Source of the DNA: Planctomycetota bacterium
GTDB taxonomy: Bacteria > Planctomycetota > B15-G4
DNA: 64,000 nucleotides
Direction: 5' to 3'
NCBI GenBank assembly: GCA_038212275.1
Contig: JBBQUR010000017.1
Location: forward strand, 32,001 to 96,000
Positions 56,233 to 62,161 of this stretch are shown here, in pieces; the stretch's first letter is position 1, and each line of letters begins with the position of its first letter. The position numbers and the translations under genes are program-made. A model generated the notes under the pieces. The model did no database searches, was not told the DNA's origin, and saw only the letters and a list, made by a program, of their open reading frames with translations.

Positions 56233-56720
56233 GGATTCACTCCTGTTCGAGATCACCGTGTCATCCCCGGTGCGGCACAGCGCCGAACGCCTGATCAACC
56301 CAAACTCAGCCTCTGTAGCCGTATCCGGTTATAGACCTTTCCGCACCGGAGATGGTCCCACGCATGCGGCAGTCGGTCAAGCGCTGCGAGCACCAATCCG
56401 CGGAGCATGCCGTGCGGTGGTTCGCCAATGAGGCCGCAAAGTGCATTTCTGGCACTTCCGGCTTTCGTGTGGGTAGCTGGGACGCCATCACCCACCGTTT
56501 CGACCTGCGTCGGTAGCTGTTCACGACGCATCCCGCCCCTGGCCCGAGGGCCCCAGGCCGGACTTGCCCTTTCCGCCCTAACCTTGATGTGTCGAGTAGA
56601 TCAGATGGGATGAGAAGGCCAGCCTCCTTCGCGGGATACCTGTGGGGTTCCCATCGTCATCACGAGCTCGAGGGCTCACAGACAGAAGGAGGCTGATCCT
56701 TGGAAAAGGCTACCACGACC

Positions 56721-57782
56721 ATGTCCACCCTGACCATCGGCATCGACCTTGGCGACCGGCACAGCCACCTGTGCCTGCTCGACGACGGCGGCAAGGTCAT
56801 CGAGGAATCCCGACTGGCGACCACGCCGGAAGCGTTCCGAGGCCGCTTCGCCGGACTTTCGAAGACTCGCGTCGCGATCGAGGTCGGGACGCATTCACCT
56901 TGGATCTCTGCGCTGCTGGCGGAGCTGGGCCATGAAGTGCTCGTCGCCAACCCGCGCAAGCTGCGCATGATCTACCGCAACGACAGCAAGAATGACCGCT
57001 GCGATGCCGAGCAACTTGCGCGAGTGGCGCGCATGGATCCGAGCCTGTTGTATCCGATCGAGCACCGCGGCCGGCAGGCGGCCGTCGACCTTGCCGTGCT
57101 GCGCTCGCGAGACACGCTGGTCGCGGCGCGCACACGCCTCGTCAACCATGTGCGCGGCACGCTGAAGGCCCTTGGCCTGCGCGCGAAAAAGTGCTCCACG
57201 CCGTCGTTCGACAAGCAGGTGCCCGAAGCGATCCCCGAGGAGCTGCAGCCGGCGCTGGCTCCCATCCTCACCGCGATCGGCGAGCTGACGACGGCAATCA
57301 AGGGCTACGACAAGGTCATCGCCACACTGTGTCGCGACTCGTATCAGGAGACCGAGCTGTTACGTGCTGTCCCCGGTGTTGGTCCCGTGACCGCGCTGAG
57401 TTTCGTGCTGACTCTGGAGGATCCAATCCGGTTCAAGAAGAGCCGCGCTGTCGGAGCCTTCTTAGGATTGCGGCCGAAGCAGCGGCAGTCCGGCAGCAGC
57501 GATCCCGAGCTGCGCATCACGAAAGCCGGTGACCGGGATCTGCGACGCCTGCTGGTGCAGAGTGCGCAGTACACCTTGGGGCCCTTCGGCAAGGACTCCG
57601 ACCTGCGGCGCTGGGGTCTCGCACTGGCGGCGCGCGGCGGAAAAGCCGCCAAGAAACGCGCGGTCGTCGCCGTGGCGCGCAAACTGGCGGTGCTGCTGCA
57701 CCGCCTGTGGGTGACCGCTGAGGTCTACGAGCCGCTGCGCCAAGCCGGGAAAGTCGACAGCCGCAAAGCAATACCTGCGTAA
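56721..57782 (+). CDS. IS110 family transposase/recombinase
   Basis: TIGIDLG, AIEVG, KNDRCDA (DEDD), VPGVGP, GL.P.QRQSG, ITKAG, VAVARKL. Confidence 0.96.
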   Translation: MSTLTIGIDLGDRHSHLCLLDDGGKVIEESRLATTPEAFRGRFAGLSKTRVAIEVGTHSPWISALLAELGHEVLVANPRKLRMIYRNDSKNDRCDAEQLARVARMDPSLLYPIEHRGRQAAVDLAVLRSRDTLVAARTRLVNHVRGTLKALGLRAKKCSTPSFDKQVPEAIPEELQPALAPILTAIGELTTAIKGYDKVIATLCRDSYQETELLRAVPGVGPVTALSFVLTLEDPIRFKKSRAVGAFLGLRPKQRQSGSSDPELRITKAGDRDLRRLLVQSAQYTLGPFGKDSDLRRWGLALAARGGKAAKKRAVVAVARKLAVLLHRLWVTAEVYEPLRQAGKVDSRKAIPA

Positions 57783-57840
57783 TTATCCAACACCTGAATC
57801 TCTGGAGAACGAAAGCCGGCGCACCGCGAGCGAGTCTCGG

Positions 57841-58064
57841 GTGATTCCTGGAACACAATCGAACTGCATTCAACCGCCCAGTCCGGGTGACTGCGACGAA
57901 TGGCTAGGCCAGACGTGCACTCACGTGCCCCGAAGGTCGCAGATCAGATGGCAGCATCCGCACTGGACGGACCCCAACAAGCACCGAGCCGCAACCACGC
58001 TGGGCTCATCAAGAGTGCGCATGGAAGCACGGCGGACGATGCGCTTCGATCCACCAGGAATCAC
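57841..58064 (+). ncRNA. Putative bridge RNA / seekRNA of the IS1111-type element
   Basis: Nested stems gtgattcctgg/ccaggaatcac, atcgaa/ttcgat, ccgcc/ggcgg, ctgcgac/gtcgcag; internal segments match the element's junction sequences. Confidence 0.7.
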
Positions 58065-58358
58065 TTGACGCGTAGGGCCTTCTCATGGAAGCCATTCGGC
58101 TTCACCCGCACAGATCGGGACTGCCGCTTTCCCGCATTCGGCTCTTCCGGGAGGTGTCCTGAATCCAGCTACGTCGGATCGCTAAGGTGCACGGAGACGG
58201 AGTCTGGAGAGAGGGTAGCGCGCGAGCAGGGCATTAAACCGTCATGGGGGCAGGCCGTGATTCCCACCTTGCCGGCTCCGGCTGACGTGGAGCGCGAGGG
58301 CAGAGACGCACGTTGGCCGAAGTAAGGCCTCAGCCGATCGTGGGCGGACTTCGCTGCT

Positions 58359-59363
58359 TCACGAGGTAGTGCCCTTCAGTGCGTTGCTAGCCGAAAAGCC
58401 AAAGCTCGCCGTGGGATCGGAGACCCACACTTGGAAAAAGATCTCTGTGCCAGGCGGTAGGCCGGACGGCAAGGTGAACGCGAAAGCAGCCGATCCAAGC
58501 CCGTCCGTGCCAAGGGGAAGGAAGAGCACCGGATTGGGAACCATGACACCGCCTTTGAACGGGGCATCTAGTTCCGAAACGCCGACGACCAGCGTGGCCG
58601 CCGAGAAAGGTCGCGCCTTGCTCAGATTCAGGTGGTTCACCGAGCCAGCGTAGAGAAATCCATCGGCGGTCAGCCACGGCACGCCCTGCGATCCGCTCTT
58701 TCCGTGGTCGAGATCCGTCCAGGTCTGCGGCCCATCCACCCGAAACGCGATCTCGTTGGCGATCGTTCCGAAGCCGTTGCCATAGTTGGTGAGCGTGCAT
58801 TCGATGTATTGAGCGGTGACAGGAAGAAACGGCAGGATGATCGCATCCGCATTCGGTGTGGGAAGGTTGAAATAGCTGCCTACGTTGATGGCACCGCTAG
58901 AAAAGTCGCCATCTAGGTCAGCCCGCACCACCATAGTGCTGATCGCCTGGCTGTGGAAATTGCTGCCTTGCCACAGGGCGATGGCAGAGACCTGATAGGC
59001 AGCGCCAAGATCAAAGACCATCACTCCCGACGACACGAATGCTGCCGAGTTCCACGACCCCAGACCGTGGTGAGGCGTCGCCGGGACAAACACGTCGAAG
59101 TTCGTGATGCCACTCGCATACGGCGCGTCCAATCCCGATTGATCGACGAGATGCACGGCCTCGAGCCCTGGCTGCTCCCCCATCGAGTTCGATGCGATCG
59201 TTGGCTGAACAATGAACTGCGCGGCAGCACTTCCTACGGATGCCAAGACCCCGAGCAGCGCACTGATGCCCAAAGCAACGCTGCTAGGGCGGCCCGATCC
59301 GACGATCTGGCCTCTGCCGAGATTCGGCCACATTGCCTGACGTTGATACAGTCTGTCATTCAT
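58359..59363 (-). CDS. Secreted protein (discoidin-like N-terminal domain) with shared C-terminal PFKGG domain
   Basis: Signal ...GSAAA|Q; DQSGL..Y.SG.T.FD, FDLG..Y.V..IALW, EIAF; C-terminus PFKGGVMVP...SNALKGTTS. Confidence 0.75.
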   Translation of the reverse strand: MNDRLYQRQAMWPNLGRGQIVGSGRPSSVALGISALLGVLASVGSAAAQFIVQPTIASNSMGEQPGLEAVHLVDQSGLDAPYASGITNFDVFVPATPHHGLGSWNSAAFVSSGVMVFDLGAAYQVSAIALWQGSNFHSQAISTMVVRADLDGDFSSGAINVGSYFNLPTPNADAIILPFLPVTAQYIECTLTNYGNGFGTIANEIAFRVDGPQTWTDLDHGKSGSQGVPWLTADGFLYAGSVNHLNLSKARPFSAATLVVGVSELDAPFKGGVMVPNPVLFLPLGTDGLGSAAFAFTLPSGLPPGTEIFFQVWVSDPTASFGFSASNALKGTTS

Positions 59364-59462: not shown

Positions 59463-62054
59463 CTACGGAGTGACGGCCGACAGGCCATTTGTCGCCGAGA
59501 ACCCGACCGGACCTCCTGCATCGGCAATCCAGGCCTGCATCACGATCTCTGTCCCGACCGGGAGACCCGACGGCCATGGAAACGTGAGGTCGAAGCCCCC
59601 CGTTGCCGGCACGACGAACTCAATAATGAGAACAGGTTCTGGGATCAGCGTGCCACCCTTCAGCGGCAACGCGACTTGGCTCAGCCCGACAACCAGAAAG
59701 GCGGGCGCGTTGGCCACCGCATGATTCAGCGCCAGTGACGTCACACCGCCCGCCACCAGATCGCCGCTACCAATGAAGTGTGGCTCGATGCCGCCCCTGC
59801 TTGCCAAGCCGTGTCCGAGGTCCGTCCACGGCGCACAGTTGAACTTGAGCACGAAGCCCATGTTGGCATCCCCCGTACCGAAGTCGGGCATGAAGGAGCC
59901 TGGTGTCGTCGGAAAGTCCGGGGCATGCGTGTACCCGGCCACAATGGCATCTCCAAGCTCATCCACCGCCACCACCAGCGGAAACTCGTAGAGCGTCGAA
60001 CCTCCGAAGTAAGTGCAGTAAAGGAGACTCGATCCATCGGCCGAGAGTTCGGCGAAGTACGCGCCGTCGTTTCCGCTGAGCGCAGGATCAAAGGCATCTG
60101 GAGTGACGGGCAGATTGGTGCTGAATGTTCGGCCCGCAATGAAGAGGCGCTGCTGGGCATCGACCGCGATCGAGAAGCTCTGGTCCGTCCCCGAGCCACC
60201 AAAGAACGTGCCATAATCGAGTGCTCTGCCGTCCGGTGACAGCTTCGCGATGAACGCATCGTGGTCGCCGTTGAAAGTGACGTCGAAGGCTCCCGGTGTC
60301 GTGGGAAACGTGGATCCGTCCGTATCCCCCGTGACGTAAGCAGACCCACTGGAGTCCACGGCGATGCCGTACACGATCTCGATCCCGGCACTTCCGAACG
60401 TGGACGAGTAAACGAGTGCATTCCCGTCGAAGTCGAACTTGTAAACAAACACGTGTTCGCTTGAGGTATGAAAAGCCCCTGGCGTCTTGATGTACCCGGA
60501 GCCGGCATGGCCCGTCACATAAGCGTGACCCACTGCGTCCAGCGCGAGGCCCTTCGTGGTGCTGGCACCCGGTACGAACGTGGAATACTCGAGAGTTGAG
60601 CCGTCCGCACTCAGTCTGCCCAAGCTGCCGGCAACCCCTATCGGCGGCATGATTGACACGAACGCGTTGGGAGTCACCGGATAGTCCGAGGACCACGTCT
60701 TGCCGGCGAAGCATGCTCGCCCCTCGTCGTCTACGCCCATGCCAAGAATGGCGTCTTGCTTACTGCCGCCAATCATCGTTGAGAAGACAAGATCGGAGCC
60801 GTCGGCAGCAAGTCTGACTATGTATCCGTCAGTCAGGCCGCTAAGCACCGAATCAAAGGCGCCTTGGGTGGTCGGAAAGTTCGTCGAACCCGTCGAACCC
60901 GCGACCGTCACTTCACCGTCATTAACTACGGAAATCTGCGACGGCGCGTCCTGAGTATCGTTCCCCCCAATATAGGTCGCATAGACTATCGAATCCCCTG
61001 CCGCGGACATCTTCGCTACGAATCCATCCGGCTTGAACGATCCGATTGTCGTAGAGAAGGCTCCCGGAGTCACCGGGAAGTCGGTCCCGGACGAGGTGCC
61101 GCCGCCTAGGTAAATGTATCCGAAGGCGTCCACAGCCGTGCAGTTGACCTCGTCTGCGCTGCTCCCGCCGATGAATGTGCCGAAGATCAGTTCAGGGTCA
61201 ATCACGAGCGGGAGCGATGGCTCGCGTCCTTCCACCTCGAAGCCGAATCGCTGGGGGTCGATCAGTCGGTAGCGACACGCCACCCGGCGCTCAGCGCCGC
61301 GATTGTCCAGTTCCCACGTCGGGGGCGGGGCCTGGTGTATCGGGCCGCCCGCCGTGTCGATGCACAACGTGCCGTCGGACTGCAGGGAAAGCCCCTCGGC
61401 GCCGTCGACACGGATGACGAACGACGCAAGATCAGCCCCCGGAGCCAGGCTCACGTCATACTCCAAATGGCCCGACTCGCCGCTAAGTTCGACGCTGACC
61501 CCCGGATACAAGTCGTCCCACCGAAGGCGACTGTGACCGACGACGCCTTTGACCCACCGCGCCGGATCATTGCCCAGGAAGTAGCTGAATCGCGTGGCCG
61601 TGGGTTCCAAGGCACGGACGAAGGCACACGACGCGGCGTTCTCGAAAGTCAGGGCCACGTTGGCGGCCAGAACCGGACTCATGGCACCGGATTCTCCGGT
61701 CTCCTCGCCGACACCGTACTCACTCCGCGGCGTGGCAAGCCGTGGCGCGGACTTCGCCGTGGTCAGCACCAAGCCCGCGTTGGTAATCCAACTCATGGCG
61801 TGCGGCGCGCCCACGACGAAGCGCGCCGGCTCGGGAAACTGTCCCCGATTCTCGACGAACTGCACGGGTAGCACTCCGAAGGACTTTGCATGCGGCTGCA
61901 TGACGGGTTGGGTTGGTTCAACCCGAACCGTCCTCTGTTCTGCCGTGAGCGACGCTCGTTCGATACACTCGCGCTGCGTGCCGCCGTGGGCTGAAAGCAG
62001 TCGGAGCGTCAAGCACGCAGTGCCGACGACGACCGCGAACCACTTGATGTTCAT
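59463..62054 (-). CDS. Secreted SBBP (beta-propeller) repeat protein with shared C-terminal PLKGG domain
   Basis: FVENRGQ, SYFLGNDP, LYPGV, LEYD, LVIDP, then repeats of Y.T..GG...D...IAVD..G..Y..G.T....FPTTPGAFD; C-terminus PLKGGTLIP...TNGLSAVTP. Confidence 0.88.
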   Translation of the reverse strand: MNIKWFAVVVGTACLTLRLLSAHGGTQRECIERASLTAEQRTVRVEPTQPVMQPHAKSFGVLPVQFVENRGQFPEPARFVVGAPHAMSWITNAGLVLTTAKSAPRLATPRSEYGVGEETGESGAMSPVLAANVALTFENAASCAFVRALEPTATRFSYFLGNDPARWVKGVVGHSRLRWDDLYPGVSVELSGESGHLEYDVSLAPGADLASFVIRVDGAEGLSLQSDGTLCIDTAGGPIHQAPPPTWELDNRGAERRVACRYRLIDPQRFGFEVEGREPSLPLVIDPELIFGTFIGGSSADEVNCTAVDAFGYIYLGGGTSSGTDFPVTPGAFSTTIGSFKPDGFVAKMSAAGDSIVYATYIGGNDTQDAPSQISVVNDGEVTVAGSTGSTNFPTTQGAFDSVLSGLTDGYIVRLAADGSDLVFSTMIGGSKQDAILGMGVDDEGRACFAGKTWSSDYPVTPNAFVSIMPPIGVAGSLGRLSADGSTLEYSTFVPGASTTKGLALDAVGHAYVTGHAGSGYIKTPGAFHTSSEHVFVYKFDFDGNALVYSSTFGSAGIEIVYGIAVDSSGSAYVTGDTDGSTFPTTPGAFDVTFNGDHDAFIAKLSPDGRALDYGTFFGGSGTDQSFSIAVDAQQRLFIAGRTFSTNLPVTPDAFDPALSGNDGAYFAELSADGSSLLYCTYFGGSTLYEFPLVVAVDELGDAIVAGYTHAPDFPTTPGSFMPDFGTGDANMGFVLKFNCAPWTDLGHGLASRGGIEPHFIGSGDLVAGGVTSLALNHAVANAPAFLVVGLSQVALPLKGGTLIPEPVLIIEFVVPATGGFDLTFPWPSGLPVGTEIVMQAWIADAGGPVGFSATNGLSAVTP

Positions 62055-62161
62055 CAACAACCCTCTTGGTGCCCTGGCCGCCTCGACGTGCCACCCGCTA
62101 GTCTACACCAGGCTGCGAACGCTCTTCGTCTGCGATGCGAAGGGGGCCAAACCGGCCCCAA

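Follow-up and report, generated by a model that had tools for sequence, protein, structure and literature searches.

Does the non-coding DNA downstream of a transposase gene in an uncultured planctomycete genome encode an RNA that specifies the very site at which its own element is inserted? The question is raised by a 64,000-nucleotide stretch of Planctomycetota bacterium DNA (assembly GCA_038212275.1, contig JBBQUR010000017.1, positions 32,001 to 96,000 of the forward strand), which we refer to as the window and whose numbering is used for coordinates throughout. The original prediction had placed in it an insertion sequence (IS) of the IS1111 type whose 3′ non-coding region (NCR) repeats pieces of both insertion junctions, and had read these pieces as the guides of a bridge RNA, or seekRNA. 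With a probability of about 0.88, we conclude that positions 56605-58089 constitute an IS110-family element of the IS1111 group, apparently intact and with a bridge RNA (seekRNA) in its 3′ NCR. As read from its sequence the element would be intact and programmable, and we infer that the RNA is produced, that a circle with a junction promoter can form, and that the element may be active at the present day.

An IS1111-group element with an AG core

The body of the element (56605..58089, plus strand) is 1485 bp long, or 1487 bp if one copy of the core dinucleotide is included. Its transposase/recombinase gene (56700..57782, plus strand) can be read from a TTG to give 360 residues or from an ATG at 56721 to give 353; the 360-residue reading is favoured because AAGGAGG precedes the TTG at 56700 by 7 nt. 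The product matches the Pfam domains DEDD_Tnp_IS110 (PF01548, E 3.3e-21, residues 6-150) and Transposase_20 (PF02371, E 1e-20, residues 212-284), and scores 218.1 bits against the NCBIfam model NF033542, 'IS110 family RNA-guided transposase' (cut-off 140). The motifs GIDLG, IEVG, NDRCDA and GLRPKQRQSG were found in it, the last of these (residue 256 onward in the 360-residue reading) fitting the GL-P----S(T)G motif described for the C-terminal domain of IS1111 transposases (PMC11187229). At 353-360 residues the protein is slightly longer than the 330-350 residues quoted for the IS1111 group in the same source (PMC11187229). The solved relatives that were found are distant and belong to the IS110 group: ISCro4 (9t56, phmmer E 4.7e-10) and IS621 (8wt6, E 6.7e-9), the latter matching in the C-terminal domain only. 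A different IS110-family gene in the same assembly (L002, G000:C7:160870-160947) has 78% identity over 79 nt to the start of the transposase gene.

Subterminal inverted repeats of 11 bp lie 5 nt (left) and 3 nt (right) inward of the core copies. The left repeat, ATGAGAAGGCC at 56610..56620 (plus strand), is kept in homologues and is the exact reverse complement of the right repeat, GGCCTTCTCAT at 58076..58086 (plus strand), so that the 11-bp match is perfect; repeats of 7-17 bp in this position are described for the IS1111 group (PMC11208160; PMC11187229). The 5′ NCR occupies about 95 nt (56605-56699), and the longer NCR lies 3′ of the gene (57783-58089, about 307 nt). Protein, end structure and NCR position all fit the IS1111 group, in agreement with the original prediction. 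The elements ISEc11, ISPa11, ISKpn4 and ISPst6 are described as sharing the NCR downstream of tnp, the subterminal inverted repeats and the GLxPxxxxSG motif (PMC11187229); we compared our element with them by their published descriptions, and the host lineage differs, ours being an uncultured genome.

The boundaries of the element can be read from related DNA that lacks it. The occupied site has the form GTCGAGTAGATC-AG-IS-AG-CCATTCGGCTTC. On the same contig (C17; L003:1488-1557, minus strand, about 800 nt past the right end of the window) an uninterrupted paralogue reads GTCGAGTAGATC-GG-CCATTCGGCTTC, with the core region GTAGATC-GG-CCATTCGG, and a second, weaker one on another contig (G000:C33:474-546) reads GTCGAGTAGATC-A-CCATTCGGCTTC, with the core region GTAGATC-A-CCATTCGG, one base short. 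Because both empty paralogues are uninterrupted, the element must be 56605-58089 with an AG on each side. The left AG (56603..56604, plus strand) forms the boundary of target and IS, where the empty paralogues have two nucleotides (GG) or one (A); the right AG (58090..58091, plus strand) is given by the sequence. There is no long target-site duplication, and the AG core is common to the target and both junctions. An empty site of the form gtagatcAGccattcgg had been predicted; it is matched by the two same-genome paralogues, although not at the core dinucleotide, where they have GG or A.

The ends of the element, AGATGG... and ...CTCATGGAAG, are kept in homologues and agree with these boundaries. 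In contigs of related elements from metagenome runs, likeness is lost directly before 56603 and after 58091, which is weak evidence for the same limits. A whole-genome blastn-short search for more copies of the target found only the three paralogues; the other short matches that it returned sit in unrelated coding-like sequence and were dismissed.

Guide segments that follow the flanking DNA

Three segments of the 3′ NCR match the junctions exactly, as had been claimed for them. The first, CGAATGGCT at 57897-57905, is the reverse complement of the right junction at 58090-58098; the second, AGATCAGATGG at 57941-57951, is identical to the left junction at 56598-56608; and the third, CATGGAAGC at 58020-58028, is identical to the right end at 58084-58092. 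None of the three has a longer version, each stopping at the ends given. The region 57783-58075 was shuffled 5000 times with its dinucleotides preserved, and each shuffle was compared with the stretches of 29 nt that surround the junctions. The left junction was matched directly over 11 nt by 6 shuffles; the right junction was matched over 9 nt by 112 directly and by 136 as reverse complement; none (0/5000) produced all three matches. Each 9-nt match taken alone is found in about 2-3% of shuffles, and no Rfam family covers the region, both of which would suit matches that have no guide function and that arose by chance or as target leftovers copied into the NCR by an earlier rearrangement. The joint result speaks against such an origin, as do the location of the segments in loops bounded by conserved helices and the finding, described below, that in dozens of elements inserted at unrelated targets the corresponding columns of the alignment change with the flanks; we give it hardly any credence.

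Read as RNA, the right target guide (RTG, 57897..57905, plus strand) would pair through CGAAUGG with the top strand of CCATTCG and through CU with the core AG. The left target guide (LTG, 57940..57950, plus strand) has CAGAUC, the sense of the left flank TAGATC, after which come the core AG and an AUG that agrees with the start of the left end. The RTG with the core agrees with the flank at 9/9 positions and the LTG with the core (57940-57947) at 7/8. The two are complementary to opposite strands of the target and overlap at the insertion point, the top-strand match lying 5′ of the bottom-strand match; both the overlap and the order are those published for IS1111 seekRNAs (PMC11187229).

To what extent these positions change with the insertion site was read from a wider family. 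One genome per species was scanned with two conserved motifs that bracket the loop, giving at least 124 loci; 80 of these were retrieved, and the metagenome-assembled genomes (MAGs) that hold them are labelled as Acidobacteriota, Planctomycetota, Myxococcota, Gemmatimonadota, Anaerolineales, Trueperaceae, Eremiobacterota and Desulfobacterales. Cognate and non-cognate pairings were counted with one representative per distinct guide. In the stretch following GACTGCG, a run of at least 6 nt in common with the reverse complement of the right flank occurs in 28/38 cognate pairings versus 48/1406 non-cognate ones. On the left, identity to the left flank over at least 4 nt immediately 5′ of AGATGG is found in 18/32 cognate versus 10/992 non-cognate pairings. 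The RTG 7-mer and the reverse complement of the right flank were compared in 47 unique guide/flank pairs: they are identical (7/7) in 28 and differ at one position (6/7) in 11, and hence agree at 6/7 or better in 39. The RTG base that pairs with the core G is almost always C; the second core-pairing base, opposite the core A, is U in 17 of the 47 pairs and in the window.

Individual elements follow the same relation. A related element in genome G045 has about 71% DNA identity in the gene and is present in several copies, with ...GGTGTC-AG common to five left junctions and AG-ACACCTT to two right junctions. Two full copies were aligned. The copy on contig C24 (L067) has AAAGGTGTCT (AAAGGTGTCU in RNA) and GTGTCAG at the homologous NCR positions, the first being the reverse complement of the right flank of that copy and the second having the sense of its left flank. 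The copy on contig C64 (L063) lies in the same kind of site and has two changes in the RTG (AATGGTGTAT versus AAAGGTGTCT); it looks like a guide decaying after insertion. An element in genome G043 has ACGGAGCCT against the flank AG-GCTCCGT, its left guide agreeing in CC-AG only. Two divergent metagenome elements with the RTG of the window both have the right flank CCATTCGCC (CCATTCG), and in one of them, L212, a different LTG, ACAGCG, matches the element's own left flank, CCAGCG. The original prediction would not have survived other copies whose flanks were unrelated to these segments; it is not refuted, because in the homologues the same NCR positions follow the flanks at differing insertion sites.

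On one Terriglobia MAG contig we observed family members in pairs 1.2-1.6 kb apart (L143/L144 and L149/L150), one pair inverted and one tandem. That genome has many copies with the common target ...CAG-AG-CCGCGACC.

Predicted fold, donor guides and mechanism

At its maximal extent the predicted bridge RNA spans 57841..58064 (plus strand) and is closed by an 11-bp stem, in which GTGATTCCTGG at 57841-57851 pairs perfectly with 58054-58064, together with further helices. The stem is as originally described; it is the outermost part of a long closing rod, and homologues have analogous helices of unrelated sequence. The nested stems reported with it are real in outline. A consensus fold computed with RNAalifold on 64 distinct homologous regions has three helices. 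The outer helix, P1 (5′ strand CCGCC..GU, 57874..57882, plus strand), joins 57874-57878 to 58031-58035 and 57881-57882 to 58027-58028, with compensatory changes in 4/7 pairs. The stem that closes the target-binding loop (5′ strand GGGUG-A-CUGC, 57885..57894, plus strand) pairs with GCAG-CAUCC at 57951-57959 in 100% of cells; its near-invariance is in part built in, this stem having been within the search pattern. The donor-side stem GCACC/G-GUGC (57981..58018, plus strand) pairs 57981-57985 with 58013-58018, has compensatory changes in 3/5 pairs, and encloses a hairpin, GAGCC...GGCUC (57986-57990/58003-58007), whose stem is at least 4 bp long in 60/64 homologues with 34 different arm pairs.

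Over the 21 consensus pairs 94.9% of cells are paired; shifting the partners by 1-3 columns lowers this to 24.6-46.8%. Compensatory pairs number seven, versus 2.7 ± 1.0 in shuffles, and seven were reached in 0/500 of these; the helices of the homologues are conserved and in part covarying. The internal loop that forms the target-binding loop of the window has strands of 11 nt (ACGAAUGGCUA) and 12 nt (GCAGAUCAGAUG), and the donor guides sit in a three-way junction. The duplex energy of the flanking helices averages -33.0 kcal/mol for cognate versus -27.2 kcal/mol for non-cognate pairs, with 16/61 cognate pairs lying past the non-cognate 5% quantile. Rfam gave no relevant match on 56300-58400 with E up to 1, the one hit being a chance-level RF02886 (E 0.88) inside the transposase gene, and no gathering-level match in 20 homologous loci (80,647 bases), so that there is no curated model for the bridge RNA.

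On the donor side, the left donor guide (LDG, 58020..58027, plus strand) is CATGGAAG, or CAUGGA plus AG, the sense of the right end CATGGA-AG, and it sits within the conserved block GAGUGCG-N-AUGGAAGC. Its sequence changes with that of the right end: homologues ending CATGGAA[G/A/C] have AUGGAAG at this position in 38/38 cases, those ending CATAGAAG or CATAGAGG have AUAGAAG in 14/15, and those ending CATGGCAG have AUGGCAG in 1/2. Family-wide covariation establishes three predicted guides, the RTG, the LTG and the LDG. A fourth guide had been called not clearly identifiable. We tentatively propose a candidate for it, a right donor guide (RDG) at 57971..57979 (plus strand), where ACCCCAACA in the three-way junction may form discontinuous pairs with the left-end top strand, G-ATGGG. 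The segment is conserved as GGACCCCAAC in the family; one element with the left end AGATAAAATG has GGATTTTAAC, and 3/5 AGATGAG elements have CTC. The base opposite left-end position 7 varies freely, which argues against the assignment.

Several further observations weigh against the reading of the element as an intact IS with a bridge RNA. None of the sequencing runs listed is of RNA, so that the RNA and its ends are predictions from the DNA, and taken as a single sequence the fold of the window is unexceptional (z = -1.29). Both search motifs are invariant by construction and therefore uninformative on covariation, and the collection leans to one subfamily. The LTG has one mismatch to the left flank, at position -6, and the RTG agrees with its flank at 5/7 positions or fewer in 8 of the 47 unique pairs. 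The CATAGAAG elements are probably one clade, which leaves few evolutionary events behind the covariation of the LDG. The RDG position stays CCC in 2/5 AGATGAG elements and in the one AGATAGG element, so that 4/7 elements with a variant left end follow it and 3/7 do not. The linear element gave no sigma-70-like promoter. In four DNA metagenome runs, in which the uncovered parts are uninformative, neither the empty site (56604 joined to 58092) nor the circle junction was seen on any contig. Finally, the draft assembly (4.65 Mb, 40 contigs, 91% complete) holds a single full copy of the element, and the lack of a second one in it bears on recent activity.

The single copy and the missing empty-site and circle-junction contigs would equally suit a genuine IS1111-type element with a bridge RNA of which the window holds a fossil copy, its RNA, promoter or recombinase having been silently inactivated. 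So would the decay of the intron remnant that forms its target (see below), the two other paralogues being unoccupied, and the two RTG changes in the C64 copy, from which it appears that guides do decay. The window copy, however, has a full-length open reading frame (ORF) with all motifs, a perfect inverted repeat, target guides that agree with their flanks nearly throughout, and every conserved helix intact. We regard a fossil as improbable, albeit not far-fetched, and prefer the reading of an apparently intact element.

What the donor-side segments do is a separate matter. The target stem-loop of the window (57885-57959) is 75 nt long, within the range of the short seekRNAs of 70-100 nt described for IS1111 elements; for ISEc11, an abundant seekRNA of this size containing target matches only is reported to have sufficed for transposition, and the authors stress that recognition of the ends may differ in IS1111 (PMC11187229). 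By extension, the functional seekRNA here could be the target stem-loop only, with the protein recognising the ends through the subterminal inverted repeats, and with CATGGAAG and ACCCCAAC kept for the structure or processing of the RNA. The incomplete covariation of the RDG would be in keeping with this, as would the pairing of the LDG core G within helix P1 in the model of the RNA alone. The LDG nevertheless follows the right end in nearly all elements of the CATAGA type and in one of the two CATGGCAG elements, and we consider a seekRNA without donor guides doubtful. The four-guide reading is retained in what follows.

A -35-like box, TTGACG (58065..58070, plus strand), would fall 17 nt before GAAG-AT at the circle junction. 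The right ends of homologues have a CTTGAC(A) box at -28 to -23 before the core, 17-18 nt before GAAG, with T at position -27 in 41/44 unique right ends. We infer that the box belongs to a promoter that is complete only once the circle has closed; for ISEc11 such a junction promoter is described, and for IS1111 seekRNA elements one is expected (PMC11187229). The element contains one terminator-like site, at chance level.

By analogy with IS621 and the IS1111 seekRNA elements, a course of events can be proposed. The element would excise as a circle with the junction CATGGA-AG-ATGGG, and this junction would assemble a promoter (TTGACG, 17 nt, GAAGAT) reading into the transposase gene and the RNA, whose transcript could yield both the recombinase and the bridge RNA. 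The closing helix of the RNA would enclose two guide-bearing regions. In the target-binding loop, the 5′ strand (CGAAUGG-CU) would pair with the top strand of the right half-site and the 3′ strand (CAGAUC-AG) with the bottom strand of the left half-site; in the three-way junction, the 3′ strand (CAUGGA-AG) would pair with the bottom strand of the right end of the IS and the 5′ strand (ACCCCAAC) probably with the top strand of its left end. The complex of DEDD/serine recombinase and RNA would then recombine the circle with GTAGATC-AG-CCATTCG, the strands being exchanged at the common AG.

This scheme resembles published accounts of IS621 in its four-guide logic, in the 2-nt core common to target and donor, in having one guide to the bottom strand and one to the top strand per loop with discontinuous pairing of the RDG, and in a recombinase with RuvC-like DEDD and Tnp (serine) domains (PMC11208160; PMC11208158). 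It differs in several respects. The RNA lies in the right end of the window element and in the left end of IS621 (PMC11208160), and the core is AG rather than CT (PMC11208160; PMC11208158). The guides come in the order RTG-LTG and RDG-LDG, opposite to that in IS621 and in line with publications on IS1111 (PMC11187229). A three-way junction forms the donor site, whereas that of IS621 is a simple internal loop (PMC11208160); a multi-loop donor site agrees with the published descriptions of IS1111 (PMC11187229; PMC11208160). In IS621 a short 'handshake' extension follows the top-strand guide (PMC11208158), whereas in the window it is the bottom-strand guide that is followed by bases matching the partner DNA (LTG-AG-AUG). 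AGATGG was within the search pattern, and covariation of the AUG extension is therefore not readable from the family set. From the mirrored guide order and the extension after the bottom-strand guide together it would follow that bottom-strand exchange comes first with IS1111-type recombinases, opposite to IS621; this is speculation.

Handshake-type extensions elsewhere in the RNA were also considered. One after the LDG is unproven: the base following AUGGAAG is mostly C and is paired in helix P1, and it equals the first flank base in L081, L099 and the window and does not in L092 and L128. One after the RTG was rejected: UC would be needed there to match the right end, and the window has AG; the second core-pairing base of the RTG is U in only 17 of the 47 unique pairs.

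A group II intron remnant as target

The target repeat was considered as a transposon end or the 3′ end of a gene, readings that have been replaced by domains V-VI of a group II intron. The paralogue at L003:1488-1557 (minus strand) matches the Rfam model RF00029 (Intron_gpII) over all 77 model positions with 46.5 bits (gathering 40), and the match, on the minus strand, ends exactly at the repeat boundary. In the window the intron remnant is split by the IS. Its last 12 nt (GATCTACTCGAC in intron sense; 56591..56602, minus strand) form the left half of the target and include the region of the domain VI branch-point A; they are identical to both paralogues, and the sequence upstream of them is unrelated. 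The rest of the decayed 3′ fragment (58092..58276, minus strand) contains the right half of the target, namely the domain VI loop, as well as a degenerate domain V and upstream sequence, with 81% identity over 187 nt to the same-contig paralogue outside the window, where the similarity stops. By itself the window copy gives no Rfam match. Its domain V no longer pairs, and it and the two paralogues are all short decayed 3′ fragments; in related genomes the same domain V module adjoins a maturase-like ORF. ORFs on the right flank and on the paralogue look spurious.

In intron sense the target reads ...GAAGCCGAAUGG-CU-GAUCUACUCGAC, which places the IS, in antisense, 12-14 nt from the 3′ end of the intron and 5-7 nt upstream of the bulged A of domain VI. 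The same assembly has three identical group II intron 3′ ends (L206-L208; G000:C4:66-141, C12:813-888 and C25:66-141; RF00029, 58.1 bits each), whose domain VI loop is different and lacks the IS target. Their location at or near contig starts suggests a multi-copy and probably active intron that breaks the assembly.

Published IS1111 targets are described as repetitive extragenic palindromic (REP) sequences, attC sites and transposon inverted repeats (PMC11187229), and differ in kind from the intron domain VI found here. A known IS1111-type element is alike in having as its specific target a conserved terminal part of another mobile element, entered at a fixed position and orientation. That element uses a DNA transposon end, whereas the window has domain VI of a group II intron in antisense, with one occupied and two unoccupied sites. 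Among the matches listed in one full-text search of the literature (15 of 27 papers) we found no mention of IS110/IS1111 elements that target group II introns; the term 'group II intron' occurs in a single one of the 15, a paper on another subject.

A lineage of IS that is naturally programmed to home antisense into domain VI of group II introns, 5-7 nt from the branch-point A, would find there a safe harbour and would disable the intron copy that it enters. Such a lineage could be imagined from the empty paralogues, which differ from the target only at the core, and from the mirrored guide order with its extension after the bottom-strand guide, although we think it rather unlikely. No intron match was found beside the IS in the 20 homologous loci at the Rfam gathering level, and the left half-site of L212 does not end like an intron 3′ end. 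With one occupied site only, selection of the specificity for introns cannot be claimed.

Apart from this possibility, the intron target represents a further case of one mobile element homing into another. The kind of system was described in 2024, and the mechanism known from it is unchanged by the present locus, a natural and easily read case of an IS1111-type bridge RNA from an uncultured lineage, in a subfamily spread over MAGs of several phyla. What is added here consists of the boundaries given by empty paralogues, the family covariation, the helix scheme, the junction-promoter box and the identity of the target. A ready-made covariation data set is available in the dozens of well-aligning orthologues whose targets differ; with it one can define where the guides of IS1111-type systems lie, together with their multi-loop donor site and their uncertain fourth guide. 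Judging by the distant matches in the PDB, these systems are structurally less explored than IS621.

To the right of the element, two neighbouring genes of the window (58359-59363 and 59463-62060, both minus strand) encode predicted secreted proteins with a similar C-terminal stretch, ...LKGG.[LM][IV]P.PVL...LP.G...F.QAW[IV].D...GFSA[ST]N[GA]L...

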